Of a stretch of DNA of 64,000 nucleotides, positions 26,601-49,096 are shown one piece after another (the first letter of the stretch is position 1; every line of letters starts with the position of its first letter). The translations under genes and the position numbers were made by a program. Origin of the DNA: a virus; the IMG/VR virus record IMGVR_UViG_3300045988_133735; one strand, given 5' to 3'. The notes under the pieces are model-generated. The model did not search any database, was not told the DNA's origin, and saw nothing but the letters and a program-made list of their open reading frames with translations.

Positions 26601-27434
26601 TTCAGCATCATACTGGACATCAAACTTTGCCAGACCGTCAACCCTGGCGATATCATCCCGAAGCAGGGTAACAAAACCGTCAACCTGTTCCTTGGTGTAG
26701 TAGTTTGCCAGTGTGTCAGCCAGACCATCTACGACAGCCTGTGCTTCTTGTGCGCTCTGTGCAGCCTGAGTGGCAGCAGTCTGTGCCTCACCAACCTTCT
26801 GGCTCATCGTAGCCAAGAACTGAGTATACCAGTCATCGCCGGTCGGATCGGTCATTGCGGTGCCGGTAAGTGCTTTCAAAACATTCAGCTTTTCGTTCGG
26901 CTTTGTACGCCACAGATAATTCTTCGATTCACCGCTGCTAGGTACGGTAATTGCACCAGTCGCCATAATTTCAAACTTCAGCACACCCTCTTTGATGGTG
27001 GCATAGTTGCTGACCATCCAGTAGAACCGGATTCTATCACTGCTATAGCTCACATTGATAGGTGCGGTATAGTTTTCAGCATTATTGGCGTTTACATAGT
27101 GAATTTGAATCGTCATAGTCATCAAGTCAACGCCATCGTAATAACGCGGCATCTCAAACGGAATTACCTGACTGTTGTTTTCCTGTGTGATATTTACCTG
27201 AGTCGGACTCAGTGTGATTTCTTTATTGGTATCAACCGTAGAAAAATCATTGTCCGAGAAGGTATCAAACCACGTATAGTTACCACTTCTAGTGAAATTC
27301 TGGTCTTCCACAGAGAAGGTTGCCACATCCTCATCACAATCAACCACTGGACTAGCATCTTCCACGGAAGCCTCCATCGTCATTGCGGGGCTTGCAGCGA
27401 CCATACGTTTGGATTCTTCAAATGATAATGCCAT
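20631..27434 (-). CDS. giant multidomain tail / host-recognition protein (2267 aa)
   Basis: Domain order read from the translation: coiled coil, poly-Gly linker plus Ig-like repeats, CotH-like region (VDNRAKNVF...WDFCFDYDND), leucine-rich repeats (LEHLNLQNVPNLKK...), two Listeria-Bacteroides-type repeats (Y.V.F...F.GWD), then a C-terminal KYWLRTP-type module. Confidence 0.75.
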   Translation of the reverse strand: MALSFEESKRMVAASPAMTMEASVEDASPVVDCDEDVATFSVEDQNFTRSGNYTWFDTFSDNDFSTVDTNKEITLSPTQVNITQENNSQVIPFEMPRYYDGVDLMTMTIQIHYVNANNAENYTAPINVSYSSDRIRFYWMVSNYATIKEGVLKFEIMATGAITVPSSGESKNYLWRTKPNEKLNVLKALTGTAMTDPTGDDWYTQFLATMSQKVGEAQTAATQAAQSAQEAQAVVDGLADTLANYYTKEQVDGFVTLLRDDIARVDGLAKFDVQYDAETQTVKFLNGEKVIKTITLNTDPSAEWVTAFNKTVEAKIDEKIAPVKTELTEYKTSNDAAVKNLQDSVGNLPETLQSDYYNKQAINKLLEAKAEKTSVETVANDLTVVKNTASGLQNSIDTINGDISEIQEQLKNVKPDPNSGREYDITYEDSKLSLLENGTVKTQVVIQGGGGGGTGGSTSVIKIERLDGSALTVIAGDSAIINFKFSSVDNSGDDTGSATGVWYVGNTKVGTQTVIQGKNSFDATQYLHSGDNTVKLQVTDSVGSVGTKTWTVNVVEFYLESSFDDTLVYSGEVTFRYTPYGNIAKTINFTIDGKILGSTTSSVTGRQLTYAIPAQTHGAHLVEVSMTAEINGKTVTSNTIKKDIMWAVEGNTTPIISCATKTASAKQYSNVAINYTVYDPSSSTTTVTLEVDGTKAATLTVGRTMQTWTWKSAEIGAHTLKIVCGSVSKEIKVNIEKLGITIEPVKTNLAFDFNPAGKTNADETRLWTDGNTKLTVSNNFDWSNGGYQLDEDGDTYFCVKAGTTANISYKLFGDDAKKLGKNFKLVFKTTNVKNYDATALTCLNGGIGLNIQAQKVTLTSEQNSISLPTCEDDFMEFEFNILPDSQYKEMVLWLDGIPCRVELYDASDNFTQASPVGITIGSPDCDVLVYRMKSYMMNLTDDEILDNFIADAKNAEEMIERYTRNDITDVSGELNPDLLAEKCPDLRIIKISAPTFTTGKKNEVPNTTIQHIYKNGRAVEDNWIAIGSHKGQGTSSNAYGESGRNIDINCSGGFTFGDESTGSKYAFTENSVGEKYFNIKVNVASSENANNALLADEFNEFNPYIRQARKDNPKVRDTMAFYPCVVFIQETDTTNATVFKDGQWHFYACGDFGNSKKNSDTMGMDPNNHKEVIIEIDNNTDAQARFLSGDFSEETWDGDHSFEFRYINKACTEEEVQAAKDAWIRVQNWVVNADDAEFKKNFENYFIKDSALFHYLFTERHTMVDNRAKNVFPHTTDLVHWDFCFDYDNDTAMGNDNEGGLTLSYGYEDMDTIGTKSVFNAHDSKLWCKIRDLFADDLAKMFLSRESALAWSSTRILKKFEDYQDVKPEKLWIMDMRRKYFRTYEDNGTTSYLPMMHGNKRHQRRQFQRYQEKYMASKYTGAACTSDDMTIRGYTPTNWTGVKPDGTFHIVPYADTYVSVRYGSNPVKVRGKRGQTYEIQCPIAAMNDTEVYVYNASIIQSIGDISGFYPGYVDFSHGVKLTDLKIGSAVEGYKNTNMTDFAVGNNTLLEHLNLQNVPNLKKSISLTGCTNLEEFYAGGSGITGVAFAKGGKIKKAELPAIASLSAKNLNYLTDLKVTDYKNITTLTVENCPTIDLIGMLAKCTSLNRVRLTGVKWELDDTSLLERLLKMTGLDENGYNTDHSVIEGSVHVPIMRERQLADYNAQWPDLNITYNTLVQQFVWTFVNKDGTVLDVQYIDKGDKAVDPVTRKENPIQTPTAESTISTDFTFSGWDTEFVAVFSNQTITATYTESVRKYTVRYMNRGAVLKETVAPYGSMVLYDGDTPTYTSEESAFKYYLFSGWDKGGYVTGDKDINAVYDSCEYSSTYFDGKEIGQLRPVEIYAMNKVGVEQNIATAKDAVSIQLGNDFSYEDITEKILVSEPQVFDGKNYIDTNIQLFEEDRDFVLAVDYKMDVTNANNTVLMQCFEQNGMNGIRLWNSTGVKTTWGIDSANGVAAGTRDMTVIRHIKGDNGLYVYSSNIYGSALNYTKITRTRSTKTNATLVFGCAKADDGAYERHAKGTVYWSKLWYADLGDAACRELAAWTHDNLIVEVASFKNYYLSDNSNKRCSMTFLQKDTLGQDMMLSSSSNNAGGWGNTSLREYLDSRLVDALPIGWKQLIKKVKVPSSAGNKSKEIVTSDCYFFIPSAIEVNSAMIDEPYIYEGQTISYMTGNESRIKHNAEGKPTKYWLRTPFATYDGYFYAIEETGELYGFHYPSEQLGVTIMFSI

Positions 27435-33580: not shown

Positions 33581-36500
33581 TTAACGTCTATTCAGTTCCT
33601 GTACAACCTTGTTCGGCAGACGATTTACCAACTCACGAGCCAGTGCATCGCTATCACCAACGGGATTGTTCACATTCACATCACCAATAGACAGGGAAAT
33701 ACCACCAGCGTCGCGGCTTTGCACCATAGAAGCAGAACTATGTTTTGCCAATTGATCGCTGAACCACTTGTCTGGATTGCCGCCCATCTCAAACAGGCGA
33801 GAGGTAATATCAGCAGGAACAACACCATCGCCAGTCTCAAGATATGTATAACGTCCAGAAGCTGGCTTACGAACAATAAGTTCTGAACCTCTTTCGTCAA
33901 CGTTTGCAAAATGATTCGTTTTAGAAGATTTAAGACCATTCGCGTGACCACCCAAAAAGAAACCAGCAAAACCTCCCAAAAGAGTACCAATCAATGCTCC
34001 TACAGGTCCACCTATTGCCATACCCGCAGCTGCGCCCAGACCAGCACCAGTAAGAGTTGTAGCAGCCGTTTTGACTGTTTTATCTTCATTGGCGGTTGCG
34101 TCATTCTTTTTGTCTGTTTCGTCAGTTGCTTTATTCTCTTCTTTAGATACGATCTGTGTAGCGTTAATTGTGAGATTTGTTGCGCTCTTTTGTGTGTTTT
34201 CGGCAGTTTCAGAACTACTATTCGCAGTGTCTTTTGTATTCTCGGCAGTTTCTTTACTCTTGCCGAAAATATCCTTACACAGATTTACGATTCCACCAAT
34301 AGGACTTATGTCCCAGAAGAACGAAGCAACGGACTTTATTGCCTTCTTACCAAAGCCATCTTCTTTATTGGACCAGATTTTCTTCTGATTCTTCATGGCC
34401 TTTGTGCCGCCATAAATACCAAGCCCGCCAGCTGCAAGAATCGGAATCGCAGCGGGCCCAGCAGCAGCCAAGGCGCTTCCAGCTGTACCAATAAGTTTTC
34501 CAGCACCAGCAAGCAACTTACCTCCGCCACTAAGTAATGTAGTTCCAACCTTACCAATCCCGCCAAGAATCGTGGAACCAATCTTGCTCTTACTAACAGC
34601 ATTACCGACAGCCTTAAATCCGTTTACAACTGTGGAAACAATGCCGCCGCCTTCGCCGGAACCGCCGAATAGGCTTTGAGCGCCACCTTTGATCGTGTTC
34701 CAAATATTTGTAAACGCATTGATAATTCCATTGCCAGAACTTACAACCTGTTTTGTAATATTGTTATTCGCGGTTGTTAATATGTTCTTTAATGCGGTTC
34801 CCGTTTCTGTTGCAGTATCAACGAGCGTGGTTTTGACAGCGTTGACTGCCTGCTTGGCTGCATTAACATAAGATGTGCCAGAACTTGCAGCCTTTTCGCC
34901 ACCATTATTTAAGAATCCTTTTATCGTATTCCACAGACCTTTTGTGCCGAGATCTTTGTACTCACCAGTCTTAAACATGGAATACAGATTATTTAGTTTT
35001 GTTAGCGTATTTATCAGTGATTCAAGGTTTGTAATCAAATTCTGGATGCCGGTGATCGCGCTGCCAGTATTTAGACTTGCAATGATCTTATTGTGATATC
35101 CGTCCAGTGAGCCTTCCATCTGAGATAGACTCATCTTCTGGATCTGCGCAGTGTACTCAAGCTCCTTCTGGTAATCCTTCCAGCTCTTGCCGATATCATC
35201 CATGACCTCAGACAACTTGTCCTTGAACTCATTGTACTTCTTGATCTGGTCGTCAATAGCCTTTTCAGCGTCTTTATTATTCCATTCACGCTGCTTGTCG
35301 GCAAGGTCTTCGCGTGCAGTACGCACATCTTCGGCGTTTGCCTGCCACTCGTAACCATTCTCAGTGTACACACGGGTCGTGCGCTGTTGCTGGGCACGGG
35401 CGAGAGCATCTTGTGCCTTGGAAAGTTCAATGGCGCGTTCAGTAGCCTCATTATTTTCTTCCAGAGCTTCCTTCTGCTTATTCAGGGCTTCAATCCGCTT
35501 GTCGATGACTTTGCCCATAGCATCGCCCCAAATCTTGAGGTCGTTATTAGATTTGTCATTTGCGGACGAAAGGAGAGAGAGGAAAGAAGAAAGGATGTCT
35601 TTTGCATCAGATAGAGCAGACTTGAAACTTTCGACCGCATTTTTCGCGTCCTCCCAGTGAGCAATCAGTTTCGCCATCACTTGGGCATCGGTTTCTTGAA
35701 CATCTTGATATTTCTGATTATAAACAGCAGTCAGTTCATCTAAAGCTGCTTTCTTGGCAGCTTCTTTATCCTCATCAGATGCGTCAGAAGAATCAATACG
35801 ACCAACTGCACGGTCATATTTTTCTTTTGCAACCTTATATTCTAAAGTCGCCTTAACCAATACGTCGTACTCTTCTTCGGTAGGAGCACGTACAGCATCG
35901 TACATCTTCTTGAGATAATCACCGTATACAGTTCCATCAAATTCCTTCATTAGTGGTTCAAGCTGCTTCACATACATATCACGCAAACCAGTTGCGTTGA
36001 TTTTATATGTTCCATCATCTTGTATGAACTGATCGAGGAAAGACTGGTCAATTTGACCGAGCTCTTGAAGAGTATCTTGACTTTTAAGACTTCCGGTTTC
36101 CTGAATCTCTTCCAAAGCGCTACGGAAAGCACTAAATGTACTCTGGAATTTATCAATTTTAGTGTTTGCATCTTCGATGTCCGTGCCAAAACCGTTCCAG
36201 AAATCAGTCATGGAGATATCGCCTTTATTCAGTTGTTCAAGGCGATTTGACCACAGCTTAGCCAGACCGGTTTGCCCACTATCATTGGCAGCATTGATAA
36301 TTTTCCCAACAAGAATTTCAGCGGCCTTCTTGATCTTGTCATCATCGACATTGAGATTTCCGTTCTCATCAAGGAAAATGCCATCGAGTTCTGGGTGCTT
36401 GGTAACTAGTTCGGTGACTTTCTTTAGTGTATCGTAATCCGCAATCTGTTCTCCATTTGCATTATCAATTTTAGACAGATCATGAAGGATCTCCATGCCA

Positions 36501-39262
36501 GACTGGAATTCGTCTGTTTTACCAGTTGCTTCATCCAGCGCGGTATTTACACCTTCAATTGCATCCTTCAGTTGATTGAGCGAAATAGTCCCGTTCTTAG
36601 CGTGAGTGTCAAGATATTCAAGGACTTGATTGTACTGTCCGATCTTACCCGTGCCATCATTTGTAGCGGCAGCATGTTTTAGTTCTGCCTGAATCAGATC
36701 TCGACATGCAGTGGCATCTACAACCAATTCATTTCCTTGCTTTTTTAAACAAGAAGTATATTTGGAGTCAAGCCCCATGAGGGATTTCATCGTGTTAAGA
36801 CTTATGCTACCCCACTTGTTGTACTCCTCCATAGCAGAAGTCAGAGTGGACCATGCGTCAAGAAGTGTTTTAGAAGAATCCGCTGCCTTGTTCGAAGAAT
36901 CAGCGGCCTTTTTCGAAGAATTGCTAAACCCATCGAGCTGATTGCGTAAACCGGCAGCACCATTCATTGCGGCAGACATATTATTTCCAATAAGCGTTAA
37001 TCTGGTGTTCAATGCGTTCATAACACCGTCAATTTTAGCTTGAACAGCGTCAGCATCTTCTCCATTGGCTGCTCCCTGTGCAGCGGCTAATGCGGCAGCA
37101 AGTTCGCCTGTTCCGACAGTGGCATCTTTCAAAGCTGGGCATAAAGCAGTAAGCTTATTCTTTTCATCTTCAGTTGCTTCAGTAAATGTCTCGGCTTTTT
37201 CTGCAGCGTCTCCCTTTGCAATCGCATTTAGTTCTGATATCGCCTGAGAAATAGCTTCCATTTGAGCTTCTGCATATTGAGTTGCCAACAAATCTGCATA
37301 CGCACTTTGATTGACTTGGAGCTTTCCATTAACAAGTTCAAGAGTATTAAGATACTGGTCATCCATTTGTAAAAGAGCCTGCAACGAATCAACGCTCATG
37401 TACCCATACTGGTTGTATTCTTCAACAGCGCTAGAACAGGCTTTGTATGCTGATTGAATATTATCGATGACGCCCATTGTTTTTTCGAGTTTATCGGCGT
37501 AATCGTCAGCAGCTGCAGAGTTACTAATTTGCACAAGACCGAAACTTTCAAACACACCAATTAGAGACTCAAATGATATTTTATTCTCGTCTGCAGTTTT
37601 ATGGAGTTTTTCAAGCGCAGCTGTTTCGGTCTCAGTTTGATGAGAAGAGTCCTTATCAATGTTGATTATTGCCTCGCCACTCATTCCACTAAATGCATCA
37701 AGCCCATTGAATGTTTTCCAATCGCTTTGCTGAGAATCACCATTGTCGATATCATTCTTGATTTGTTTTATTTTTTCTGAGAATATATCAAGATTGGTAG
37801 TGTCAATACCTGTATTATCCTGTGCATTCGCCAGAGCTTTAGTGGCTGCAGTCATTGCGTTCGTGCCGGCAACATATTCGTCCTTGTACTGAGTGAAACT
37901 GTCAGCGTCAGTCTCGTAGCTGTTCATTTGCTCAGACACGGCAGAGGAAAGCTCTTCAACCTTGGTTTTCTGGGATTTAAAAGTTTCATTCAGAGCATCG
38001 AGTTCTTTCTTTTTATTTGCATACTCTTCAGAATCTTTTCCGCTAGAAGCTTCAATTTGGTCAAGTTCAACCTGAAGATTACGACGTTTTTGAGTAGTAT
38101 CTTCGAGTGCTGCTGCATACTCATGGAGAGATTCAGTCTTAGAAACTTTCTCTGCAACCTGATGAGTGCCAGCATTTGCACCACCCTCGGCATAAGAAAC
38201 ATTTACTGTGCGGGATTTCACAATACTGTCTTCTGTTTTATCATTCACAACAGCACTTGTGTCGGCATTTGCTTTATCGTTCGCGTCCTTCTCCAGTTGC
38301 TTCTTGAGTTCGAGTTGAGCCTGCAACATATCGTTGATGGCTTGTAACCGCTCGCGCTCGGCAGGATCAACGATATCCTCGATCTTTTTAACACCAGCGT
38401 CCTTCAGAGATTTGTTAAGCTCGTCAATCTTGGACTGAATCTCTTCAACATCCTTAGTGGCTTGCTGTGCAGCATCGTGAGAATCATTCATTGCAGCGAC
38501 AAGTTCTTCAGAATGCGTTTTTAGGTTCATAAGATAATCGACAATTTTAGTTGCGATAAAGGCAACAGCAGCTACACCAAGAGAGAGGAGAAGTTGTTTG
38601 CCATATTGAGCTACTACATTCCAGGCCTTTTGAGCCGCAGTAAGAGCTACTGTGGCGACCGTGCTCATCTGTTTAACGCTAATTTCTTTCAAGAATGCTT
38701 GAGAAAGTTTATAGACACCATTTTCTTGTTCTAAAATTCCAGCGTTGAACAGTTGTTGCGTTTTACTTGCATCGGAACAATGATTGGCGTAATCTTCCAT
38801 CAAAGCAATAGCATCTTGTGTGTTTGGAAGTGCGAGTACCCCTTTAGCGTCTTTTAACCCGCCTGCCTTCATGAATTCGTTCAGAACACCATTTGTAATG
38901 CCGTCTTTTTGAGATGCTATTTGTTCAAATAATTGAGAATTGAATTTTTCACCTGTTTGAACAGCATTTTTTGTATTTTCAATATAGTCCTCTAAGCCTT
39001 CATCAAAAGAAGACAAACTGAGAAATGCTTTTTGTTGAGCTTCGTCAAGATTTACAAATTGCGCAATAAATCCATCAATGCTTCCAATATCGTTAAAAAT
39101 TGAATGACTATCAAATTTTTTTGCATTTCCGATTTGATAATTTCCCAAGAGCATATATTTCTGAAGGATTTGCGGCAAATCTTTAAGCTGCTCTGACGCT
39201 TTTAATGTTTTATCAAGAGATCCATCTAAGGTCGTTAATTCACCTATTGACTTGTTGATTGT
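33581..39262 (-). CDS. tail tape measure protein, exon 2 (1893 codons)
   Basis: No RBS or ATG at its 5' end, and the frame is open 30 codons upstream of the TTG. Shows TMP-type coiled coils, the Gly-rich hydrophobic block GGKLLAGAGKLIGTAGSALAAAG, and repeated YN(Q/K)(Y/W)G..S...(L/M).(A/S)L. Joined to exon 1 by the predicted splice. Confidence 0.8.
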   Translation of the reverse strand, partial: TINKSIGELTTLDGSLDKTLKASEQLKDLPQILQKYMLLGNYQIGNAKKFDSHSIFNDIGSIDGFIAQFVNLDEAQQKAFLSLSSFDEGLEDYIENTKNAVQTGEKFNSQLFEQIASQKDGITNGVLNEFMKAGGLKDAKGVLALPNTQDAIALMEDYANHCSDASKTQQLFNAGILEQENGVYKLSQAFLKEISVKQMSTVATVALTAAQKAWNVVAQYGKQLLLSLGVAAVAFIATKIVDYLMNLKTHSEELVAAMNDSHDAAQQATKDVEEIQSKIDELNKSLKDAGVKKIEDIVDPAERERLQAINDMLQAQLELKKQLEKDANDKANADTSAVVNDKTEDSIVKSRTVNVSYAEGGANAGTHQVAEKVSKTESLHEYAAALEDTTQKRRNLQVELDQIEASSGKDSEEYANKKKELDALNETFKSQKTKVEELSSAVSEQMNSYETDADSFTQYKDEYVAGTNAMTAATKALANAQDNTGIDTTNLDIFSEKIKQIKNDIDNGDSQQSDWKTFNGLDAFSGMSGEAIINIDKDSSHQTETETAALEKLHKTADENKISFESLIGVFESFGLVQISNSAAADDYADKLEKTMGVIDNIQSAYKACSSAVEEYNQYGYMSVDSLQALLQMDDQYLNTLELVNGKLQVNQSAYADLLATQYAEAQMEAISQAISELNAIAKGDAAEKAETFTEATEDEKNKLTALCPALKDATVGTGELAAALAAAQGAANGEDADAVQAKIDGVMNALNTRLTLIGNNMSAAMNGAAGLRNQLDGFSNSSKKAADSSNKAADSSKTLLDAWSTLTSAMEEYNKWGSISLNTMKSLMGLDSKYTSCLKKQGNELVVDATACRDLIQAELKHAAATNDGTGKIGQYNQVLEYLDTHAKNGTISLNQLKDAIEGVNTALDEATGKTDEFQSGMEILHDLSKIDNANGEQIADYDTLKKVTELVTKHPELDGIFLDENGNLNVDDDKIKKAAEILVGKIINAANDSGQTGLAKLWSNRLEQLNKGDISMTDFWNGFGTDIEDANTKIDKFQSTFSAFRSALEEIQETGSLKSQDTLQELGQIDQSFLDQFIQDDGTYKINATGLRDMYVKQLEPLMKEFDGTVYGDYLKKMYDAVRAPTEEEYDVLVKATLEYKVAKEKYDRAVGRIDSSDASDEDKEAAKKAALDELTAVYNQKYQDVQETDAQVMAKLIAHWEDAKNAVESFKSALSDAKDILSSFLSLLSSANDKSNNDLKIWGDAMGKVIDKRIEALNKQKEALEENNEATERAIELSKAQDALARAQQQRTTRVYTENGYEWQANAEDVRTAREDLADKQREWNNKDAEKAIDDQIKKYNEFKDKLSEVMDDIGKSWKDYQKELEYTAQIQKMSLSQMEGSLDGYHNKIIASLNTGSAITGIQNLITNLESLINTLTKLNNLYSMFKTGEYKDLGTKGLWNTIKGFLNNGGEKAASSGTSYVNAAKQAVNAVKTTLVDTATETGTALKNILTTANNNITKQVVSSGNGIINAFTNIWNTIKGGAQSLFGGSGEGGGIVSTVVNGFKAVGNAVSKSKIGSTILGGIGKVGTTLLSGGGKLLAGAGKLIGTAGSALAAAGPAAIPILAAGGLGIYGGTKAMKNQKKIWSNKEDGFGKKAIKSVASFFWDISPIGGIVNLCKDIFGKSKETAENTKDTANSSSETAENTQKSATNLTINATQIVSKEENKATDETDKKNDATANEDKTVKTAATTLTGAGLGAAAGMAIGGPVGALIGTLLGGFAGFFLGGHANGLKSSKTNHFANVDERGSELIVRKPASGRYTYLETGDGVVPADITSRLFEMGGNPDKWFSDQLAKHSSASMVQSRDAGGISLSIGDVNVNNPVGDSDALARELVNRLPNKVVQELNRR

Positions 39263-39275
39263 CAAACTGTATACT
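39247..39275 (+). promoter_or_regulatory. sigma-A promoter for the + strand intron cassette, straddling the 3' splice site
   Basis: TTGACT (39247-39252, inside exon 2), 17-nt spacer, TATACT (39270-39275, inside the intron). Confidence 0.55.
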
Positions 39276-39323
39276 AATCTTAGTGGTCGGCAAAGATTAT
39301 TTGTGAAATAGGTGATAAGAATT

Positions 39324-39929
39324 ATGAGAATTGGTGAAATCGAAGCAGATATTGACTATAGACACGGCAAAGCGAATAAATGGGGCTTTTGGACAATAGG
39401 AGCTTTAACTGCTGAGGGAAAAAAGATTCTGAAAAAGTATCCAGACTATAAAATCCTAAAAGATGATTGGAGAGTAAAAAATGATGACGAATTTTTTGCA
39501 TCAGTTGTTTATGCCTATATGGTTGATTGTATTTTACAAGAATACAGCGACAACGAATATTTAATGAATGAATATGTAAAAGCAACCGAAGATAAACTAG
39601 CGACTCGCCCAAGCGGAAAAGGAGAGATGTCTCGCAAAGGTATAAACGAAGCATTCTTAAAGTCGTTCGAAGATTATATAAAAGAACAAAATAATCCCGG
39701 TATACTTAAAAGAGAACAAGAACAAGAAGAAAAAGAAAGAGCAGTAGCGCGAGCGCTTTCAGCCGAATACGAAGCAAAACATCCTCATATCACTTGTCCC
39801 TACTGCAAATCCACGAACACCGAAAAGATCAGCACCGTGAGCCGCGCTGTGTCTGTGTCCCTCGTGGGCGCTGCCAGCGGGAAGATCGGCAAACAGTGGC
39901 ACTGCAAAAACTGCGGCAGTAATTTTTAA
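39324..39929 (+). CDS. intron-cassette protein C: unknown N-domain plus C-terminal zinc ribbon
   Basis: AGGTGA RBS before ATG 39324. C-terminus reads CPYCKSTNTEKISTVSRAVSVSLVGAASGKIGKQWHCKNCGSNF. Confidence 0.55.
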   Translation: MRIGEIEADIDYRHGKANKWGFWTIGALTAEGKKILKKYPDYKILKDDWRVKNDDEFFASVVYAYMVDCILQEYSDNEYLMNEYVKATEDKLATRPSGKGEMSRKGINEAFLKSFEDYIKEQNNPGILKREQEQEEKERAVARALSAEYEAKHPHITCPYCKSTNTEKISTVSRAVSVSLVGAASGKIGKQWHCKNCGSNF

Positions 39930-39941
39930 AGGAGAATTAAA

Positions 39942-40277
39942 ATGAAAGTCAATCAGGACATTATGAACCTCATTTGCAAGCTTGAATACAGAATTGGCGA
40001 CACATGTGCAAATAGCGACTCGTACAACGGATGGACTGATGAATGGGGCGCTGATTTTCGGTATCCTGTAACCGTTGACGGCCATGGGAAATTCAGAGGT
40101 CGAATTGACGATCTTGGACTTGAACCGGAATCGCTTGGCGATATCTATTATAAATTTGGCGCAAACGAGATGCATATTGGGTACGGTATCAAGCATGTCC
40201 TAGAAGAGCTTGAAGATTTATATGGTCTTGATTTTGTAAAGCTTGAAGCAGAGCGGAAAGCAAAAGCGCAGAAGTGA
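39942..40277 (+). CDS. intron-cassette protein D (hypothetical, 111 aa)
   Basis: AAAGGAG RBS 8 nt before the ATG. No family recognised. Confidence 0.5.
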   Translation: MKVNQDIMNLICKLEYRIGDTCANSDSYNGWTDEWGADFRYPVTVDGHGKFRGRIDDLGLEPESLGDIYYKFGANEMHIGYGIKHVLEELEDLYGLDFVKLEAERKAKAQK

Positions 40278-40353
40278 TTGTATTACCAGCAAAACCTAGT
40301 AAACAATTCTATCGTAAGAACTGTGGGTATGAATGGTAAGGATGTGAACCAAG

Positions 40354-40920
40354 TTGTCTTTGGTGATGGCAATTGTATGCACTGACGGAATCGTTGTATC
40401 TGGCGATTTTAGAAGATCGAGATCTATCACAAATCCACAAACAGGGGATAAACAAGTTGTAGAATTTTACGACGATACGCACAAATTGATTAAAACAAAA
40501 TCCAATCGTGTAGTTGGCCATACTGGAGACTACTCTTTCAACAGCGGAGAATTAGTAGAAGACACGATATGCAGTGTGCTGCAATTGACAGACGCACTGA
40601 ATTCTCCAATTGATAGTGAGTTTGCGTATCTTGTTAGCTCCATTAGACATAACAAAAACTCACTCATTGAAGCTGGTATTATAAACGGACATAGAATTGT
40701 ATTGACATGGAAACAAGGCGAACCAATTAAACAGATAGTTATAAAAGGATGCGCAATTGGAGATATTGATGTATTCGAAAAATATAAAGAGGAATTCGAA
40801 TGTGAAATACAAGATATAACAATTAAAGAAGCTGTCCCTTTATTGCAAAAATATAACAGACTGATTGCGAGCGAAACGCCTACGATTAGTCCAGACTGTG
40901 AAGTAATGATCATTGAATAG
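40354..40920 (+). CDS. intron-cassette protein E: HslV / proteasome-beta-like Ntn-hydrolase homologue
   Basis: MSLVMAIVCTDGIVVSGD aligns by eye to HslV MTTIVSVRRNGHVVIAGD, placing Ser2 at the Thr nucleophile position with the GD at 17-18. HKLIKTKSNRVVGHTGD fits the Lys33 / AG.A.D region. TTG start. Confidence 0.45.
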   Translation: MSLVMAIVCTDGIVVSGDFRRSRSITNPQTGDKQVVEFYDDTHKLIKTKSNRVVGHTGDYSFNSGELVEDTICSVLQLTDALNSPIDSEFAYLVSSIRHNKNSLIEAGIINGHRIVLTWKQGEPIKQIVIKGCAIGDIDVFEKYKEEFECEIQDITIKEAVPLLQKYNRLIASETPTISPDCEVMIIE

Positions 40921-41088
40921 TTATGCTTGCCACCCGGAACAAACACATTTTATATAGTTTGCCCCATCTTTGGATAAAATATAATATTCGTCTTCATGCG
41001 GCTCGATACAGTTAATATTTTCTTCTTTTTCAAGTTCAACAAAACCTTTTTGATTACTTTCGCGATAATAAAATTTCTTATATGTCAC
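40921..41088 (-). CDS. intron-cassette protein B (small, start uncertain)
   Basis: GGAGGAG RBS 5-7 nt before the in-frame GTG at 41088. The longer track ORF (to 41160) would have to encode the terminator hairpin. Its stop abuts the stop of gene E. Confidence 0.3.
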   Translation of the reverse strand: MTYKKFYYRESNQKGFVELEKEENINCIEPHEDEYYILSKDGANYIKCVCSGWQA

Positions 41089-41107
41089 TGTATCTCCTCC
41101 TTCCATC

Positions 41108-41154
41108 GAAATATAGCAAAAGCCCGGCCTCCCAGCAATAGGGAAGTCGGGCTT
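41108..41154 (-). terminator. strong hairpin terminator after gene A (may act in both directions)
   Basis: AAGCCCGACTTCCC (41154-41141) pairs with GGGAGGCCGGGCTT (41133-41120) at 13 of 14 positions, followed by TTGCTATATTT on the - strand. Confidence 0.55.
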
Positions 41155-41179
41155 GTTCATTATGATGACTGCACAGCAG

Positions 41180-41512
41180 TTACTTCAGAAGTTCAGCAAT
41201 CTCTTCAGCAGTCATACCGCTGGCCAGTGCATTGGCAACAATATCTTCTGCCTTTTTACGATTCAGCTCTGCCGCAATCTTTTCGTCAGCATCAGCCTTT
41301 TTCTTTTCGAGCTTTACAATCTCTTTGTTGAGTTTTTTCAACTCTGCTTCTTTTGCTTTACGCTGGGCGTTCAATGCAGCGATATTATCACCAATAGTTG
41401 CAATCTCCTGAGCAATAGATTCTGCGGCAGTATTCTTTTCAGCGATCTGTGCTGCGTAATCGATACCATCGAGAACCTTTGCTTTATTCTTGCTTCCTTT
41501 AGTACGTGCCAT
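41180..41512 (-). CDS. intron-cassette protein A: Lys/Ala/Glu-rich coiled-coil protein (110 aa)
   Basis: GGAGG RBS 9 nt before the ATG. Has its own consensus promoter and terminator. N-terminus MARTKGSKNKAK is basic; C-terminus is SGMTAEEIAELLK. Confidence 0.6.
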   Translation of the reverse strand: MARTKGSKNKAKVLDGIDYAAQIAEKNTAAESIAQEIATIGDNIAALNAQRKAKEAELKKLNKEIVKLEKKKADADEKIAAELNRKKAEDIVANALASGMTAEEIAELLK

Positions 41513-41566
41513 AATAAAATACCTCCACTACATGCGTTTTGTTTACATGTTGTTTTTAATATTTTT

Positions 41567-41595
41567 ATTATAGCCAGAAATACTAAGATAGTCAA
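41567..41595 (-). promoter_or_regulatory. consensus sigma-A promoter inside the intron (drives gene A)
   Basis: Minus strand reads TTGACT (41595-41590), 17-nt spacer, TATAAT (41572-41567). Confidence 0.65.
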
Positions 41596-41611
41596 CAAAA
41601 ATATTTTTCCA

Positions 41612-41988
41612 CTTTTGACGGCAGGGGAAAGACCGCCTGTAATTTTTCCGCTGGAGCGTGTTGCGCCAGCAGTGATTTGGAGCACCCCATAGTGAATCTG
41701 CGGCGTTGTTACGCACGTAGTTCCACTCCGACATTATGCTCTCTGAAGCGTCTCTGGCAGTGCCTATTATAATAATGTAGGCGCATGCAGAGCTTGCCTG
41801 CGGATTCCTTTCGGTTCCCGGACGAGAATTACCCAAACTCGCCGTGGCTAGGCCACCATGTTCGTCGGTTTTACTAAATACTCCCTCATGCTTCGCAATG
41901 ATATAATAAAATACCTGCGGAGCACTTGTTCCGTGTCACCACCCGGAGTATTGCTGGGCACAATCATGAAACCCGTCATTTTGGGTTT
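41612..41988 (-). ncRNA. group I ribozyme core (P1 to P9)
   Basis: CATTGCGAAG (41900-41891) resembles the P element. AATCCGCAGG (41806-41797) resembles Q. TTCAGAGAGCATAATGTCGG (41747-41728) resembles R (Tetrahymena GUUCACAGACUAAAUGUCGG). P7 is G(A)GAGCA (41743-41737) with TGCTCC (41684-41679) and a bulged A. P9 is GCTGG/CCAGC (41670-41650). The segment is GC-rich relative to its flanks. Confidence 0.7.
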
Positions 41989-44900
41989 ACCCAGCTGAGT
42001 TGCAAATGCTGTGATGCCCAGTCCAGCAGGAAGGGCACCAGTGAGATTAATGATTTTATCAAGAAGTTTAACAATGGATGTGAGGAAAGATACGCCGCCC
42101 TTCACGAGGCCAGAAGAGAGAACGTCTTGAGAAAGGACTTGGAAGCTTGCATCGAGCTGTGCGAGACGGCCATTGATACTGTCGAGATACTTCTCGTTCT
42201 CTTCCCATGCCACGTTGGCGCTGTTAGCAGCGGATTCCATAGCAGATTCAGCAACGTCAAAGTTGTTTAGAATAGCACTAACTGCATTTGCGTTTCTCTT
42301 TCCGCCAATCATTTCAGTAACATTTGCCTGCGTTACATCGGACAGACCACTCCATACTTGAGACAGCTCTTTCATGATTTGATATGTACTCTTGAAATTT
42401 TTGCTATCCAGCATGATGTCAACGCCAGTCAGAGATTTCAGTTCACTGCGGAGCTCAGACACAGAATTGGCCATACCGTCAACTTCAATACCTGCATTCT
42501 CTGCGTCACTTTTAGCAGCACGGAGATACATTGACAAACTTTTTAAAGTTGTACCGACCGTATCTGCATCTTGGATAACTGCGTTTGCAGCAGTACCAAG
42601 CGCGATAGTTTCTTCCAGCGTATTATTAGCGGCCGACATAGCAGCAGAACTGCGAGTCAAGATTTCGCCAAGGTCTTTTGCAGTAACGGGCTGTGTATTT
42701 GCGACAGCGTCAATTTTATTAACGACATCTTCTGCTTGATCGGCTAACAGTCCAAAGCCTTGTAAAGTAGAAATCAAATACGAAGACGAGGTGTTAACGT
42801 CATCGATATTATCGCCAACGTTACGAAGTAGGGTAGAGTAGGTTGCTAAATTCTCGGCGTCTTCATCAGAATAACCAAGCCGCTTCCAATCTGCGGTTGA
42901 ATTAACATAGTCACTTATAGATACGCCTAACTTTTGAGCCTGTTCTGCGGCACGTCCCATATACTCTTCAAGGGATTTTCCTGTATACTCACTGACTTTT
43001 CTTAACTCAGTTACTGCCGTATCAATTTCGACCACATTCTGATACACGATCCGCAACGCGTCTTGCATCTTGTGCAGTGCTGCCATAGTGATCATAGTAC
43101 TCAAATGCTGGCCAAACAGTTTTTCGAACACATCAAGCAGATTTTTTGATTCGAGACCCAACTTTTTAGATTCAGCGCGAAGCTCTGCATATTTCTTTTT
43201 CAGTTCACCAATTTTCTCTGGTGCGTCACTTTGATTCAATGCTTCAAGCAACTCATAGAGAGACTTTCCAACGTCTGTTCCGTCAAGCTTTTTATGTTCT
43301 GCAATATAATCATGAATAGTTGCCTTCAGATTAGCGACTTCCATTGATGCCTTATTTATAGATTTTTCACGAGAGGCTTCTTTATTGAAATCTTTTGCTT
43401 CTTGTGTTGCTTCTCTATAGGCGAGGTGTAATTGATTTATTGCATCCGTTACAGAATTAATTTTATCTGGAGATATACCAAGGTTATTCTGTGCCCATCC
43501 TTTGGCAGCTGATACCGGATCTGAAGATTCGTTTATCGTATCGAGTAAAGTTTTGAGCTTTGAATCTTTTTCTTGTAGTTTGCCATAAAAAGAATAATCA
43601 GTACCATAATTCTTCTGGACATCCTTCATTGTGGCCCTATTTTGAGATATTGCATCGCTGACAGATTTTAAGTTTGATATCTTTGTACTTTCTCGTTTTG
43701 CGGCTTGGTTTTCCGCCTCTTCGACGGCTTTAACTTTTCTTTCGATTTCTTCCCAAATCTTTTTGACTTCTACAAGTTTTTCTTTATAAGCGTCAGTTTG
43801 AGGCTCAAGCTCATTTAACTGCTTGAGAAGATTATCGATACCATCAAATTTGACATTCTGGAGACTTCCATCGGCCTGCATCTGTCGAGCAACTTCAACA
43901 CCCTCGGCAATTTTGATACCTTCGCGTTCAAGTTTCTTATAATTGCTCTTCCAAATGGTGTATTGCGCGTTGGCTTTGTAAGATTCACGCTTTAGCTCAT
44001 TATAATCAACTGCATAATTCTCGTATGTGTTTGGATTTTGAGCGCTAAGTGTGGCCGCTTTGGTGATAACTCCATTAATAGAATTCTTTAATTTCTCGTT
44101 AGAACTGCCAGAGGCTTCTTCTGCAAGCTGATAGAACTTCTTTTCAATACTATCAACGGCTTTCGTAAGGTCTTTTTGCTTCTTTTCTACGGTATCTATA
44201 ACTGCCACAACAGATTTCCAGTTTTCTTCTGCGGCTTGAATTGCGTTGTTGTACTCTTCTGTACCAACCTTTGCTTTAGCGATCTGTGATACAAGTTCTT
44301 GCTGCTTTTGAAGCGCGACTTGGATATCCGTCGCCGTTTTACCCTCCGCTGCGGCTTCTTCTACTGTTCCATAAGTTTTTTGAGCGCCGGACAGTTGATT
44401 TACAAGATTTTGATATTGGTCGTTGCGTTTATTTTCTACGGCACGATTAGATGAACGGTATTCCTTTTCAGCCAAATCTGCTATATCGCGAACGTCTGTA
44501 AACTGATAGGGATTTACACCAGTGGAATCTTGGAAATTAAACATCAATTCAGAAAGACGAGTTTCTTCTTCTGCCAACTGCTTGTTTACTTCATCCAAAT
44601 CCTCTTTATCTTTTGCATCAACAAATCTACCTCTTTGTTTTTGCAGAGATATGATTTTCTGATAACTTGAAACAATATCGTCGATAGCTTTACTTCCATC
44701 AGAATTATCCTTCTTCTCTTGTGCAATAATATCGCGGGCAAGAAGTTTATTTTCTGCTTCTTCTTGCTTTTTGGTTGCCTCAGCGGCTTTTTCTTTCGCT
44801 TCTGTTTCTTCTTGTAATGCTTTTGTCGCTTCTTGTTGAATCTTTATGGCTACCTGTTGTTTTGCAATATCAAATTTATTATCAGAACTTGCTTGTGCAT

Positions 44901-47481
44901 AATAATATTTAAGTGCCTGTTTACGAATACTAGTGACTTTTAATGGATTATATCCAACTTCGCTTGCAGAAAGCATTTTTTCATTAAGCTCTGCTTCATC
45001 GGCAGAAATTTGATCTTCAATTTGGTGTAAGTCAAATGCCTGCTCTGGCTTTGTATATCTTCCACGTTTGCTTTCTAAACTAGTAAGTTCTCGATAGATA
45101 GATTCAATGGCTTTTAAATTATCTAACTCTGCTTGATCATATTTCTTCTGTGCAGTAACTACATCTCGATTAAAAGATCTATTTTCAGCATCAGCCTTTT
45201 TTTGAGCAGCATCAGCGATTTTTTGTTGAAGCTGTTCTTCTTGCTGCAACAATCTATTAGCTTCTTGTTGTGCTTTTACGTCTATAATGTTTGAATCTAT
45301 TTTGGATTTTGTGGTTCCCTTCTTCTTGGATTCTTTGCCAGCCGCTTCTTTAATTGCATCAACAATCTTCGCATTTTTCAGAATCAGATTGCCCGCGATA
45401 TCGAATTCCTTTTTCGAAATCTCAACATCATCAATCTTGACATCAGCTGCTTTGATTTTTACAGAGCCATTAAGTTTCAGGGGATCTGGTCTCTTGATAT
45501 CTTCATCTTTGAGTTCGACCTTGCCCTTTAAATCAATGACATCAGGTTTTTTAACATCATCCTTTACGTTCTTCTTTTTGCCCTTGGCGGTATCGTTAAC
45601 CGTAACGTTAGACACTTTGCCTTCCAGTTCGACTGCCGTTTTCGGAGGAGTGATGTCAGAAACCTTAAGTTCAACCTTACCGGGGATTTTCACAGATCCC
45701 TTCGGAGGAGTTACGTCTTCTACTTTAAGAGTTACCTTGCCGGGAATATTAACCGGTGCAGTCGGATCAACCGTGACAGTTCCGGGAATAGACACAGGAT
45801 TTTTGACATCCACGACAACGTCTGCATCTGTGATAGTAACTTTACCACGTATCGGCACAACATCATTAGCATTACTTTGATTATCATTCTTAGGGATATC
45901 TGGTTTATCAGGTTCATTTAACGATTTATTCAACTCATCTTTAACATGTTTTGCTGCATCTTTTTTAAGATGGAGATCAATAGGGGCTGAAATATCTTTA
46001 AACGCCTCATCAACTTTAAGCTGAAGAACGGCCGGATCAATATCGAATTTAACGTCTTTTACATTATAGACCCCGTCTTCAATCTGATTTTTTCCACCAC
46101 TATTTTGAGCGGCTTGCATTTTAATTTCTTGATTCTTGATAAAATCTGCGAGGTTTGTTGTTTCTGCAAATTTTGCAATTTTATCTGTATCAAATTTCTT
46201 GAAAAGGGCTTCATATTGCATGAGTTCATTCGAAAGTCCTTCGCGTGTTAGCACTGTTGCGGCGAGAATGCTTTTTTCTAAATCCACAGCAGTTTTACGC
46301 GCATCATTGATTGCATTCTGTTTATCTGCAATATTGCTCAATACCTTATCGAGTTTTTGCCCATACGTTTCAATAGTCGAAGCGTCTAAATGCCCAGAAG
46401 TGTCTGTTTTTTGTGCAGCGTTCGCTTCTTTTTGGACGTCTTTTATTTCTGCCTTAACAGCCTTTGCACTAGAGTTAATTTCTGATATTTTAGCATGGAC
46501 ATTCCCAAGCTCACCTGATACATTGTCCAGGACAGAATTGAACGATATTTTATTATCACCAGTTAATCCGTTTATTAACTTGGAAAAATCCATGACTTGG
46601 TCAGTTGTTTTAAATGCGTCTTTTGATTTATCAATAATCTCATCTAAAAAATCATCGATGGACATGAATTCTTTCAGCTTTTTGTTTAAATCAAAACCCT
46701 GTGCATTAAAGACATCCAATTTATCTTTGAATTTGTCTGAATCAAATGCAGAATATACAGAATCTAAAATTGATTTTAATTCTTTTGCCTTACTTCCAAG
46801 CTGAGTAAATTGATCATTAAATGCATTTATATTAATTTTATCGTCATCTAACCAATTGTCTGCATATAATCCAGCCCAAATATCTTTTATTTCATTTACA
46901 AGATTTTCGACTTGAGATAAATTTCTTTTCTTTGTTGTATCTGAAATTTTATAATTCAATAAATCGTTGATATTAAAAGTCCCAGATAAACCACCAACAA
47001 ATTCATCACTTACCTCATTCGCAACTTGTTTAGCAATTGTTTTGAATTCTTTCGTAGGGAATATATCATTTACAAAAGAACCCAATCGATCTGTATTACT
47101 TGTTAAATTTTTTAGATAATAACTTAATTGTTGATTGACTTCTTTTAGTTGATTTTTTAACTGCTTAGTCAACTCACTCGAAAAATCATCAACGTTAACA
47201 CCAACAGTAACTTTCGGAATATCGCCAATGCCGTTAATTTGCTGTTGAATATCAGTTTTTAGTTTTTCAGTATCGACAACAGGCGTTATACTTGCAGTTG
47301 CCTTGATGTTTTTTAATTTATCTTCGACCTTCTTTTTTATGCCATCAACATTAGGGTCAATATCAATCTGTGGCTTTTCACCGCTTTGTTTTACTTTTCG
47401 CTCAATGCTCGTCTTTAACTCTGTTGGTTTGATTTGTGGATCTACCTTAACTTTGATACTCAGTTCTGGTTCACGCGCCAT
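41989..47481 (-). CDS. tail tape measure protein, exon 1 (1831 codons)
   Basis: Long coiled coils, then a TP901-type TMP core (ALRIVYQNVVEIDTAVTELRKVSEYTG...ADWKRLGY...STLQGFGL). The 47 codons after ...ATQLG in the track ORF are intron read-through. GGAGGAATATAAT precedes ATG 47481. Confidence 0.8.
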
Positions 47482-47548: not shown

Positions 47549-48013
47549 TTATTTGTCGTGCTCGATTCGATTTTTTAGTAGCTTTACAATATCAGCGTAT
47601 CGATAATCGATGTCGTCTTGTGTGTTTTCCATGAATGGACGTGGTTTTGTCCACTTATATTTTCTATAATTCCACGGATTGTAAGCGCCTTCTTCGATTA
47701 TACGTGCCAAACTATCTGGTTTGTTTTTGAAATTTGGAGCGTCTAAGCGTGGTCCATCAATGGGAGCTTCTTCATACACATATAGCGTGTGATCTCGAAC
47801 TTTGTGTTTTAGATTTTTATCGTCTACTAAGCCACCAGATCCCTCGCGCCGTTCATATTCGACGGGGGAGTAGGTTGAATACACGTCTTTCTGTACATGA
47901 GATTTAAGCCGCTCTTTTACAGTGCTTGCAATTTCGTTTTTTAGTGCAAGATTTGCACGCCTCATGATTTCAGTCTGAAGAGCATCCACCGTGGTAGCTG
48001 TAAACTTTGCCAT
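47549..48013 (-). CDS. tail-module protein (154 aa)
   Basis: GGAG RBS before ATG 48013; the track start at 48085 lies inside the upstream gene. Position just upstream of the TMP. Confidence 0.45.
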   Translation of the reverse strand: MAKFTATTVDALQTEIMRRANLALKNEIASTVKERLKSHVQKDVYSTYSPVEYERREGSGGLVDDKNLKHKVRDHTLYVYEEAPIDGPRLDAPNFKNKPDSLARIIEEGAYNPWNYRKYKWTKPRPFMENTQDDIDYRYADIVKLLKNRIEHDK

Positions 48014-48017
48014 AATC

Positions 48018-48539
48018 TTACTCCTTGTCTTTGGTGACCACTGTGGCGTGAATTCCATCAAGTACGCCTTCTGGAGTTTTAACATTATAGCTGTTATCGA
48101 AAACGGGCTTTGTCATGTTCTCTTCAGAAATAGTTTTAATCATTTCTTTCATATTAAACTGCTCGCCAATACCATTCAGCACATCGGCTGCTAACTTCAT
48201 CAACTCCTCAAACGGCTGATTCTTTGCAGTTGCCTCGAACAGCGCCATATACTGCTGACGTTCAATCTCGATCTTCTCACGGCAAGCCTTGTTCAGCGTA
48301 CCAAGAATATACTTGCGAGGAGCTTCGTTCATCATCTTTGTGGTCTCATCAGAAAATGCCAGCTCGCTCAGCGCGTTCTGATCCATGCCGGTTGTATCAG
48401 TGTCTGTAAAGTAGACAACAGCAGCAATACGGAAAGCATAATCATATAGTGCGGGATCATACTTGCCATTACGCTTTGACAGGTCTACAACACCATCAAC
48501 AAACTGGATGCGCTCTTCTAGGTTCAGATTATATTTCAT
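48018..48539 (-). CDS. probable tail assembly chaperone
   Basis: Acidic 173-aa protein between the tail tube and the TMP. Confidence 0.4.
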   Translation of the reverse strand: MKYNLNLEERIQFVDGVVDLSKRNGKYDPALYDYAFRIAAVVYFTDTDTTGMDQNALSELAFSDETTKMMNEAPRKYILGTLNKACREKIEIERQQYMALFEATAKNQPFEELMKLAADVLNGIGEQFNMKEMIKTISEENMTKPVFDNSYNVKTPEGVLDGIHATVVTKDKE

Positions 48540-48544
48540 AATTA

Positions 48545-49096
48545 TTAGTCCTCCTGTGTAATTTTATTTCGTTCAAGTCTCATCAGTGCGGCAGTCGCAA
48601 TACACATCGCGTCAGCTTCATCAGAAGAGACATTTTCACCATAGTGTTCGGCTACATAGTCAATAGCCTGCTGTTTTAGTTCGGGGCGTTTTACTTGCCG
48701 CCCCTGTTTGAAATCGAGCATTTTGCGCCATTCAGTCGGCTTTATGATTTCATATGGGATATTGAATAGTTCACACGCTCCAATAATCGCCCCCTGCAAC
48801 TGCGCAAGCTGAATTACTGTCTTGGCTGATGCTTGCAGCGCCACGTCTTCAATTACGACAAGATCGGGATTGTTGGTTTTGATGCGGCTCTGTATCATCT
48901 GGCGCATAATGGCGCGACGCTCAACTGGGTCTTTGGTTTTACTTAAATCAATTAGCGAGTGATATACAGTGCCGTCGTCTAATGTACAAACACCGGTCTT
49001 TATTAGCGCTTGGTCAAAAGCTAAGATTTTTATAATAAACACTTCCTTTTTGTTTTGGAATATGGTAGAATTCAAACTTGAAGAACACCTGCACAC
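48545..49096 (-). CDS. RuvC-like Holliday junction resolvase (start uncertain)
   Basis: Acidic catalytic residues in the RuvC order: ILAFDQ, VVIEDV, SSDEADAMCIA. Confidence 0.7.
   Translation of the reverse strand: MCRCSSSLNSTIFQNKKEVFIIKILAFDQALIKTGVCTLDDGTVYHSLIDLSKTKDPVERRAIMRQMIQSRIKTNNPDLVVIEDVALQASAKTVIQLAQLQGAIIGACELFNIPYEIIKPTEWRKMLDFKQGRQVKRPELKQQAIDYVAEHYGENVSSDEADAMCIATAALMRLERNKITQED

Follow-up and report, generated by a model that had tools for sequence, protein, structure and literature searches.

A predicted group I-type intron carrying variable genes on both strands in the tape-measure gene of gut phages

Described introns and the present locus

Group I introns are known to interrupt the tape-measure protein (TMP) genes of Bacillus cereus-group prophages, in which they occupy three sites, TMP-IVS1/2/3 (Tourasse & Kolsto 2008, PMC2504315). 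The present analysis concerns an element of the same broad kind in the IMG/VR virus record IMGVR_UViG_3300045988_133735, of which a stretch of 64,000 nucleotides (nt), hereafter the window, was analysed. Positions 39263-41988 of its minus strand very probably constitute a group I-type self-splicing intron in the TMP gene, with a predicted exon junction at 41989^39262 (the caret marks a splice junction throughout). The original prediction of this intron knew of no described tape-measure intron; since the Bacillus introns were described in 2008, the presence of an intron in a TMP gene is not new in itself.

Like the Bacillus introns, the present one appears to be of group I, interrupts the TMP gene of a siphophage, belongs to Firmicutes-type phages and has P1 and P10 helices adapted to its insertion site; like it, several of the Bacillus introns have no complete homing endonuclease gene (PMC2504315). 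The Bacillus introns are reported as IA1 or IA2, whereas a single hairpin (P8) lies between P3' and P7' in the present ribozyme. P7.1/P7.2 helices are associated with IA introns, and the present ribozyme has none. It further differs in a four-way junction in P4, in a 3' pseudoknot and in not being recognised by Rfam, and its intron carries a multi-gene cargo of 1-5 kb. The Bacillus introns are patchily distributed, whereas the present intron occurs in every relative found.

IStrons (CdISt1, BcISt1, CboIStron) are fusions of a group I ribozyme with an IS605/IS607 element (PMC10690162), and their layout, in which kilobases of coding cargo separate a 5' ribozyme from a remote 3' splice site, resembles the one seen here, as does their occurrence in Clostridia-type genomes, silent inside coding genes. 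Their ribozymes match the Rfam group I model, and related introns with 'uncharacterized accessory factors' are mentioned in the same paper (PMC10690162). In contrast, the present ribozyme does not match that model, no TnpA, TnpB or omega-RNA is found in its intron, and the cargo is hypervariable, partly antisense and furnished with its own predicted promoters. The phage T4 nrdD (sunY) intron, reportedly treated by Michel et al. in 1992, is said to have a 5' core and a 3' splice site far downstream of the intron's open reading frame (ORF); in both introns, the remote 3' end has to return to the core. The sunY intron is said to measure ~1 kb and to hold one homing endonuclease gene on the sense strand, whereas five genes on both strands, and no endonuclease, are found here. 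The ribozyme architecture, the lack of a mobility gene, the bidirectional and fast-changing cargo and the fixation in every relative found are what makes this intron unusual.

Exon ends, guide pairing and relatives

The features of the predicted junction are as follows.

41989..47481, minus strand: exon 1 of the TMP gene, 1,831 codons; the 5' strand of P1 consists of its last 7 nt, GCUGGGU (41995-41989)
39263..41988, minus strand: whole predicted intron, 2,726 nt; starts one base past the U·G pair and ends with the omega-G 39263
33581..39262, minus strand: exon 2 of the TMP gene, 1,893 codons and a stop; its first 6 nt, ACAAUC (39262-39257), are the P10 partner of the guide
41953..41965, minus strand: internal guide sequence, comprising GAUUGU (P10 guide, 41965-41960) and GCCCAGC (P1 3' strand, 41959-41953)

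The exon-1 3' end CUGGGU (41994-41989), the guide GAUUGUGCCCAG (41965-41954) and G39263 directly followed by ACAAUC (39262-39257), upon which the original prediction was built, all stand on the minus strand where it had placed them. Ligation of 41989 to 39262 yields a single ORF of 3,724 amino acids (aa), ...AFATQLG^TINKSIGELTT..., with both junctions at codon boundaries, and the predicted spliced RNA reads ...CAGCUGGGU (also written ...GCAACTCAGCTGGGT) ^ ACAAUCAACAAG (also written ACAATCAACAAGTCAATAGG). The intron begins with AAACCC and ends with UUUG. In the unspliced RNA, the exon-1 frame continues for 46 codons into the gap, to a UAG at 41850-41848, rather than for the 47 residues dissimilar to a tape measure that had been counted originally. 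The exon-2 frame is open for 30 codons upstream of its sole candidate start codon, a TTG, which, as had been noticed from the outset, lacks a Shine-Dalgarno sequence, in contrast to the AAGGAGG of neighbouring genes.

A search of IMG/VR with a protein query spanning the junction returned 58 loci, mostly on contigs of ~75-150 kb. In 53 close relatives (79-99% identity) the homology to exon 1 ends exactly at residue 1831, the proposed 5' splice site, and, in those cases in which a match to exon 2 includes its first residue, homology resumes precisely at the proposed 3' splice site. The exons of these 53 relatives are 2.0-5.2 kb apart; over all relatives the gap measures 1.3-5.2 kb and has conserved ends and a variable middle. 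The other 5 of the 58 loci are homologues of 45% identity, and 4 of these were shown to be continuous, as are the TMPs of Enterocloster phage CB473P1, Brevibacillus phage Sundance and Bacillus phage Tsamsa; such distant TMPs are single ORFs extending >1,000 aa beyond the homologous point. Pattern searches revealed three further, divergent clades with the ribozyme at the homologous position of the TMP gene, and the intron is present in all the close relatives found (about 60 related gut phages were compared).

Clade 2: L088, L089 and L119; predicted junction ...NKAAG^AIKPTVDAIR; intron of 1,325 nt
Clade 3: L084, L101, L250 and L251; predicted junction ...LNATAG^AIMPVVEALR; intron of 1,388 nt
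Clade 4: L249, L252 and L253; predicted junction ...SAFAVG^TINKSIKN; intron of 1,803 nt (L253)

In each of these clades the predicted 3' exon lies after a G and at a codon boundary and opens a long downstream ORF. The P1 strands of the window are GCUGGGU/GCCCAGC; clades 2 and 3 have GGCGGGU/GCCCGCC instead, and clade 4 has GGUGGGU/GCCCACC. Two P1 pairs are changed on both sides between clades, and the U·G at the 5' splice site is retained in all of the sequences (57/57). For P10 the window has GAUUGU/ACAAUC, clade 2 has AAUUGC/GCAAUU and clade 3 has GAUUGC/GCAAUU, with double changes at two pairs; in L253 the helix comprises 10 bp and a bulge of 2 nt. All of 46 introns from the four clades end in G, whereas the two preceding bases vary; in clade 1 the last codon ahead of the junction may be TTG, ATG, ACG, TCG, TAG or AAG, with the G alone conserved. 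Thus P1 and P10 change in a compensatory manner with the exon sequence across four clades, which indicates that the intron features are more than a product of chance and bears out the in-frame junction that the guide had been proposed to specify.

The locus could also be read as two separate genes, for a TMP core protein and for a second large tail protein, with an accessory island between them and with the RNA as a non-splicing structured element that serves as 3' untranslated region, processing site or regulator. In keeping with this reading, which is considered very improbable, the split falls at a domain boundary (TIGR01760 tape_meas_TP901 covers residues 1483-1829 of the 1831 of exon 1 and ends 2 residues before the splice site; PF10145 also matches exon 1) and is found in every close relative, the cargo has predicted promoters of its own and Rfam recognises no intron in the window. 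However, an in-frame exon-2 start codon with a Shine-Dalgarno sequence is found in 0/43 loci, in one of which a TAG immediately precedes the junction, and codon 6 of exon 2 is ATA in the subclade of the window. Furthermore, one 13-nt guide pairs and covaries with both exon ends, the reading frame is kept at the join in each of the four clades and the distant homologues are single ORFs.

The ends of the intron also appear to mark a break within the TMP gene itself. Among the clade-1 phages (L010-L056) exon 1 is 80-98% identical, whereas exon 2 is often only 28-39% identical, from which it follows that the intron lies at a boundary, due to recombination or mosaicism, within the TMP gene. A blastn search of a phage database with the core returned one unannotated faecal contig only, and a 17-mer scan of genome contigs gave ~120 matches in unrelated phyla, which is roughly the chance expectation.

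Structure, selection and proposed splicing of the ribozyme

The elements of the predicted core are listed below, all on the minus strand and with intron nt 1 at position 41988.

41606..41988: ribozyme core, nt 1-383, from the P1 loop hairpin through the 3' pseudoknot
nt 1-6 / 15-20: P1 loop hairpin
41877..41952: P2, nt 37-44 / 105-112; between its strands lie an invariant 18-mer and, at nt 64-102 (41925-41887), a variable hairpin
41728..41868: P3, nt 121-126 / 256-261; encloses J3/4, P4-P5, P6 and the 5' strand of P7
J3/4: sequence AAC(A)
within 41799..41858: P4, UG 41858-41857 and CGGG 41820-41817 / UCCGCA 41804-41799; nt 131-132 + 169-172 / 185-190
41856-41844 and 41843-41821: hairpins A and B, nt 133-145 and 146-168, placed without linkers in the 5' strand of P4 to give a four-way junction
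41814-41807: P5, nt 175-176 / 181-182, with a GAAA (GNRA) loop; J4/5 is AA and J5/4 is AA
41746..41798: P6/P6a, nt 191-243, a variable extended hairpin
within 41679..41743: P7, G246 and 248-252 / 305-310, G(A)GAGCA/UGCUCC, with A247 bulged before G248-C309
within 41679..41743: J7/3, P3', P8 and J8/7; P8 is at 41726-41692, nt 263-297
41673-41647: P9, a variable hairpin with at least four sequence types
41639-41606: pseudoknot, nt 350-383
39299-39275 (region 39263..39300): 3'-terminal hairpin with the loop ..GACCAC.., followed by UAUAC-N4 and the omega-G 39263

The topology appears to be that of a group I ribozyme, with P4-P6 and P3-P7-P8 domains, a P3/P7 pseudoknot and, in P7, a bulged A before a G-C pair. 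UG·CGGG / UCCGCA corresponds to the classical P/Q pairing. The Q element AAUCCGCAGG and the R element UUCAGAGAGCAUAAUGUCGG, the P7 helix with its bulged A and the P9 hairpin, all recognised in the original prediction, are upheld in the alignment, whereas its P element, CATTGCGAAG, is in reality the 3' strand of the variable hairpin at nt 64-102, which is replaced wholesale among the relatives. A UUGCG/CGCAG pairing for P/Q was likewise rejected, its segment being a strand of a variable hairpin whose position is not conserved.

Throughout the core, conserved blocks are interspersed with hairpins whose whole sequence is exchanged among the relatives. Three unrelated sequence types are seen in the variable hairpin inside P2, and at least three types in P6/P6a, where a base pair also changes from G-C to C-G; P2 and P8 have two compensatory pairs each, P7 changes from C-G to U-A in clade 4, hairpins A and B, P5 and P6 all covary, and changes in the pseudoknot loop UCUYUCC are matched by changes in GGARA downstream. 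The AA segments flanking P5 are invariant in all clades, the exception being a clade-1 variant (L012) with GA in J4/5. The 3'-terminal hairpin has more than 24 distinct predicted variants, in which the stems are replaced wholesale around a conserved loop containing GACC(A/C). An alternative P3, ACUCCG/CGGAGU, was rejected, as it is not conserved in clade 2 and competes with the covarying P2.

In an alignment of 12 sequences, 98.0% of the pairs are canonical over the 72 pairs modelled and 20 pairs are changed on both sides; shuffles gave a mean of 12.5 double-changed pairs and did not reach the observed 20 in any of 500 trials (0/500). The covariation score was 0.283 vs 0.152, and slid controls had 38-46% canonical pairs and 1-4 double-changed pairs. 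A separate count over 57 distinct sequences gave 99.2% canonical pairs and 23 double-changed pairs. Diversity by codon position in the first 63 intron nt, read in the exon-1 frame, is 0.023/0.024/0.028 and shows no periodicity, as against 0.145/0.12/0.336 in the last 300 nt of exon 1; the constraint on the former is thus on the RNA and not on a protein.

These data bear on the notion of a decayed, non-splicing intron, which would leave either a TMP pseudogene or an element removed from the DNA before expression. In its favour, the intron is very long and has no homing endonuclease or other mobility gene. Such decay is nevertheless extremely improbable, with the core under strong purifying selection and carrying compensatory changes in more than 60 genomes of ~140-150 kb phages, and with both exons open for about 1,830 and 1,890 codons; a recombinase and flanking excision repeats were not seen. 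The element likewise appears to lack the marks of a group II intron, namely 5' GUGYG, 3' AY, domain V and a reverse transcriptase ORF: no Rfam group II intron was matched in the window and no reverse transcriptase domain was found in the cargo scanned. No second copy of the ribozyme was found within the window.

Several points weigh against reading the element as a self-splicing group I intron. The search with the Rfam group I model RF00028, proposed at the outset as a check, gave no match in the window, whether at the gathering score or, over 3.3 kb and over 451 nt, at E<=10, and the remaining Rfam matches in the window are due to chance, that of SNORD87 on the plus strand merely reflecting the P1 inverted repeat. 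A local match was obtained for L088, a compact clade-2 intron (17 bits, E 0.044, model positions 60-145), which is below the gathering score of 50; its alignment places P4, J4/5, P5, J5/4, P4', P6, J6/7 and the start of P7 on the bases modelled here. The failure elsewhere is probably due to the 36-nt insertion of two hairpins in P4, an insertion that is, to our knowledge, unfamiliar from the described group I subgroups. The pairing by which the Rfam model would extend P4 (U167-A190, C168·C189) was rejected in favour of the four-way junction, as the pair 146/168 changes from G-C to U-A in clade 3.

Other such points concern the core, the exons and the relatives. P3, which RNAalifold predicts and which is invariant in 57/57 sequences, and P4 never vary, so that covariation neither supports nor contradicts either helix. 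P9.0 could not be identified, nor could a consistent tertiary partner for the loop of the 3' hairpin: a putative pairing of its GACCAC with GUGGU (nt 48-52) is feasible in clades 1, 3 and 4 and fails in clade 2. The first 17 nt of exon 2 are near-invariant in clade 1 and are followed by highly variable sequence, and this near-invariance may derive in part from a plus-strand promoter; in clade 2 a comparable promoter-like sequence lies inside the intron, yet P10 still covaries. Depending on the locus, the open frame of exon 1 reaches 31-67 codons into the ribozyme, whose folding could therefore be disturbed by coupled translation. No intron-less close relative (an 'empty site') was found in IMG/VR or in 5.8 billion protein clusters, so that no close relative is available for the comparison with intron-less homologues suggested in the original prediction; the distant TMPs are continuous through the site. 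In the same clusters no protein crosses the junction, the best coverage of the junction-spanning query being at most 53%. Finally, splicing in infected cells is something we infer from the comparative evidence.

On the reading that is nonetheless preferred, a group I-type intron, late transcription of the TMP gene would yield the ~383-nt ribozyme first, and the guide would form P1 by pairing to the terminal 7 nt of exon 1, so that a U·G wobble comes to lie at the cleavage site. There a free guanosine, docked in P7 at the G-C pair beside the bulged A, would attack. The ~2.3 kb of cargo would be transcribed next, and the conserved terminal hairpin and terminal G would then reach the core, whereupon the other half of the guide and the first 6-7 nt of exon 2 would form P10 and the exons would be ligated. 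The spliced mRNA would encode one tape measure of 3,724 aa, ...AFATQLG^TINKSIG.... The two sense genes of the cargo would be expressed from a predicted sigma-70-type promoter and the three antisense genes from a second one, likewise predicted, that extends over the 3' splice site. Catalysis, promoter activity and cargo function in this scheme are what we infer from sequence.

Certain clades carry additions to the core. In clade 2, the sequence G^GCAAUU of the real 3' splice site recurs directly behind the pseudoknot of the ribozyme (+331; in L088, intron nt 325-337 and about 11451-11463 in plus-strand coordinates). This second copy, which was not seen in the other clades, might serve as an alternative 3' splice site or be left over from an ancestral short intron. 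In clade 3 (L084 about 1470-1745; L101, L250, L251) an insertion of ~270 nt in the P6 loop holds an antisense ORF that has a GGAGG ribosome-binding site and encodes a hydrophobic peptide of 27 aa (MAEYINIIVLNLISMALYDAILSRRDR), together with a terminator-like hairpin. A palindromic insertion of 40 nt (...ACGATTTTGTTGACGTCAACAAAATCG..., alignment columns ~292-331) is found in the P8 loop of L010 in clade 1. The P6-loop and P8 insertions are at positions where group I introns tolerate insertions.

A real ribozyme might also splice only partially or alternatively by design, the intron then setting the ratio of two tape-measure isoforms, an unspliced one of 1,877 aa (the complete TP901-type TMP core with a 46-aa tail) and a spliced one of 3,724 aa. 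This is regarded as rather unlikely. The intron lies exactly at the C-terminal edge of the TIGR01760 domain, the distance of 1-5 kb from the core to the 3' site and antisense transcription should slow the second step, the second G^GCAAUU of clade 2 offers a possible alternative 3' splice site, and the published splicing efficiencies of IStrons vary widely (PMC10690162). However, the 46-codon extension bears no coding signature and varies in length from 31 to 67 codons among the loci, the proximal decoy site occurs in one clade only and the functionality of a truncated TMP is unsupported.

Cargo genes, significance and neighbouring genes

Five plausible genes are present in the intron, two on the sense (minus) and three on the antisense (plus) strand. 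They and the promoter-like sites are given below, with the frequencies of their families among 45 distinct introns (1.3-5.2 kb, four clades) in which the cargo was compared.

41180..41512, minus strand: gene for a lysine-rich coiled-coil protein of 110 aa with a GGAGG ribosome-binding site; homologues in 40/45 introns
40921..41088, minus strand: small ORF, about 55 aa if translation starts at the GTG after GGAGGAG; the listed ORF reaches 41160
39324..39929, plus strand: antisense gene beside the 3' splice site, for a protein of 201 aa with a C-terminal zinc ribbon (CPYC...GKxWxCxxCGSxF)
39942-40277, plus strand: antisense gene for a protein of 111 aa; family in 32/45 introns
40354-40920, plus strand: antisense gene for a protein of 188 aa; family in 9/45 introns
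41567..41595, minus strand: predicted promoter-like TTGACT-17-TATAAT, 11/12 consensus and the best in the region; just past the ribozyme and upstream of the first cargo gene
39247..39275, plus strand: predicted promoter-like TTGACT-17-TATACT; spans the 3' splice junction with its -35 box in exon 2 and faces the zinc-ribbon gene

The -10 box of the plus-strand site is TATAAT in most clade-1 relatives, and a hairpin with a U-tract, a terminator as judged from sequence, follows the 110-aa gene (about 41152-41115). With predicted promoters in both orientations, the cargo is probably expressed independently of the TMP transcript.

The zinc-ribbon gene is the sole universal cargo gene, being present in 45/45 introns of all four clades, and its family has 251 homologues. 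A homologue of 49% identity is a bacterial chromosomal gene (L254/L255 8001-8663, GCA_041328755.1) located between clpB/diacylglycerol kinase and groES-groEL, which shows that the family is not specific to the intron. No fold match was found for its AF2 model (pLDDT 82.5) with Foldseek against PDB, and Pfam, PHROGs, PADLOC and AF2 with Foldseek provided no function for the protein. The 110-aa protein and the small 55-aa ORF matched no Pfam family at the cutoff and nothing in PHROGs; likewise, the 111-aa and 188-aa proteins matched no Pfam family at the cutoff and nothing in PHROGs and PADLOC.

A retropepsin-like aspartic protease (PF13650/PF13975) recurs in the cargo of 21 clade-1 introns and of clade 4 in differing orientations, for instance at intron nt 866-1282 of L253 (antisense; PF13650, 38 bits) and nt 767-1279 of L042. 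The zinc-ribbon and retropepsin-like domains are the only domains in the scanned cargo. Domains of homing endonucleases, transposases or known defence systems were not found in the cargo of the window (Pfam, PHROGs, PADLOC) or of the relatives (Pfam, PADLOC); with no intron-encoded homing endonuclease, the element would not appear to be a homing group I intron. Nor was the transposase or TnpB domain that is characteristic of IStrons found in the scanned cargo families of the 45 distinct introns.

It is tentatively proposed that the element may represent a distinct structural subclass of group I intron, fixed in a gut phage lineage as a carrier of accessory genes. The traits of such a subclass would be the four-way junction inside P4, the 3' pseudoknot and the remote terminal hairpin. 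The conserved ends would permit a promoter-bearing cargo of 1-5 kb to sit in the middle of an essential late gene and to be swapped by recombination, and would also mark the exchange point at which the variable C-terminal half of the TMP passes between phages. The cargo would always include the antisense zinc-ribbon gene and often the retropepsin-like protease. An intron that lacks an endonuclease, is fixed in its lineage and holds fast-changing genes on both strands suggests that accessory genes can be housed safely in introns within essential operons. Two of the cargo genes, the universal one for the zinc-ribbon protein and the recurrent one for the aspartic protease, are candidates for functional study.

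The gut phages concerned, of ~145 kb, will be annotated with two "tail proteins" of ~1,850 aa and a block of orphan genes, whereas the evidence points instead to one tape measure of 3,724 aa, which is among the longest known to us. Tape measures usually correspond to ~1.5 Å of tail per residue, and the tail would, by our own estimate, measure roughly 0.5 µm if this ratio holds. As the P4 insertion is likely to defeat the standard Rfam model, which this group I-type ribozyme escapes, similar introns have probably been missed in metagenomes.

The genes around the TMP gene are virion and tail genes. Among those just upstream lies a gene for a RuvC-like Holliday-junction resolvase (48545-49096, minus strand; phrog_159, E 2e-25). 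Directly upstream of the TMP gene, the ORFs 47549-48085 and 48018-48539 on the minus strand overlap by 68 nt, and we take this to be the usual place of the tail-assembly chaperone pair that is made by programmed frameshifting. Downstream of the tail genes, an ORF of 2,267 aa occupies 20631-27434 on the minus strand.

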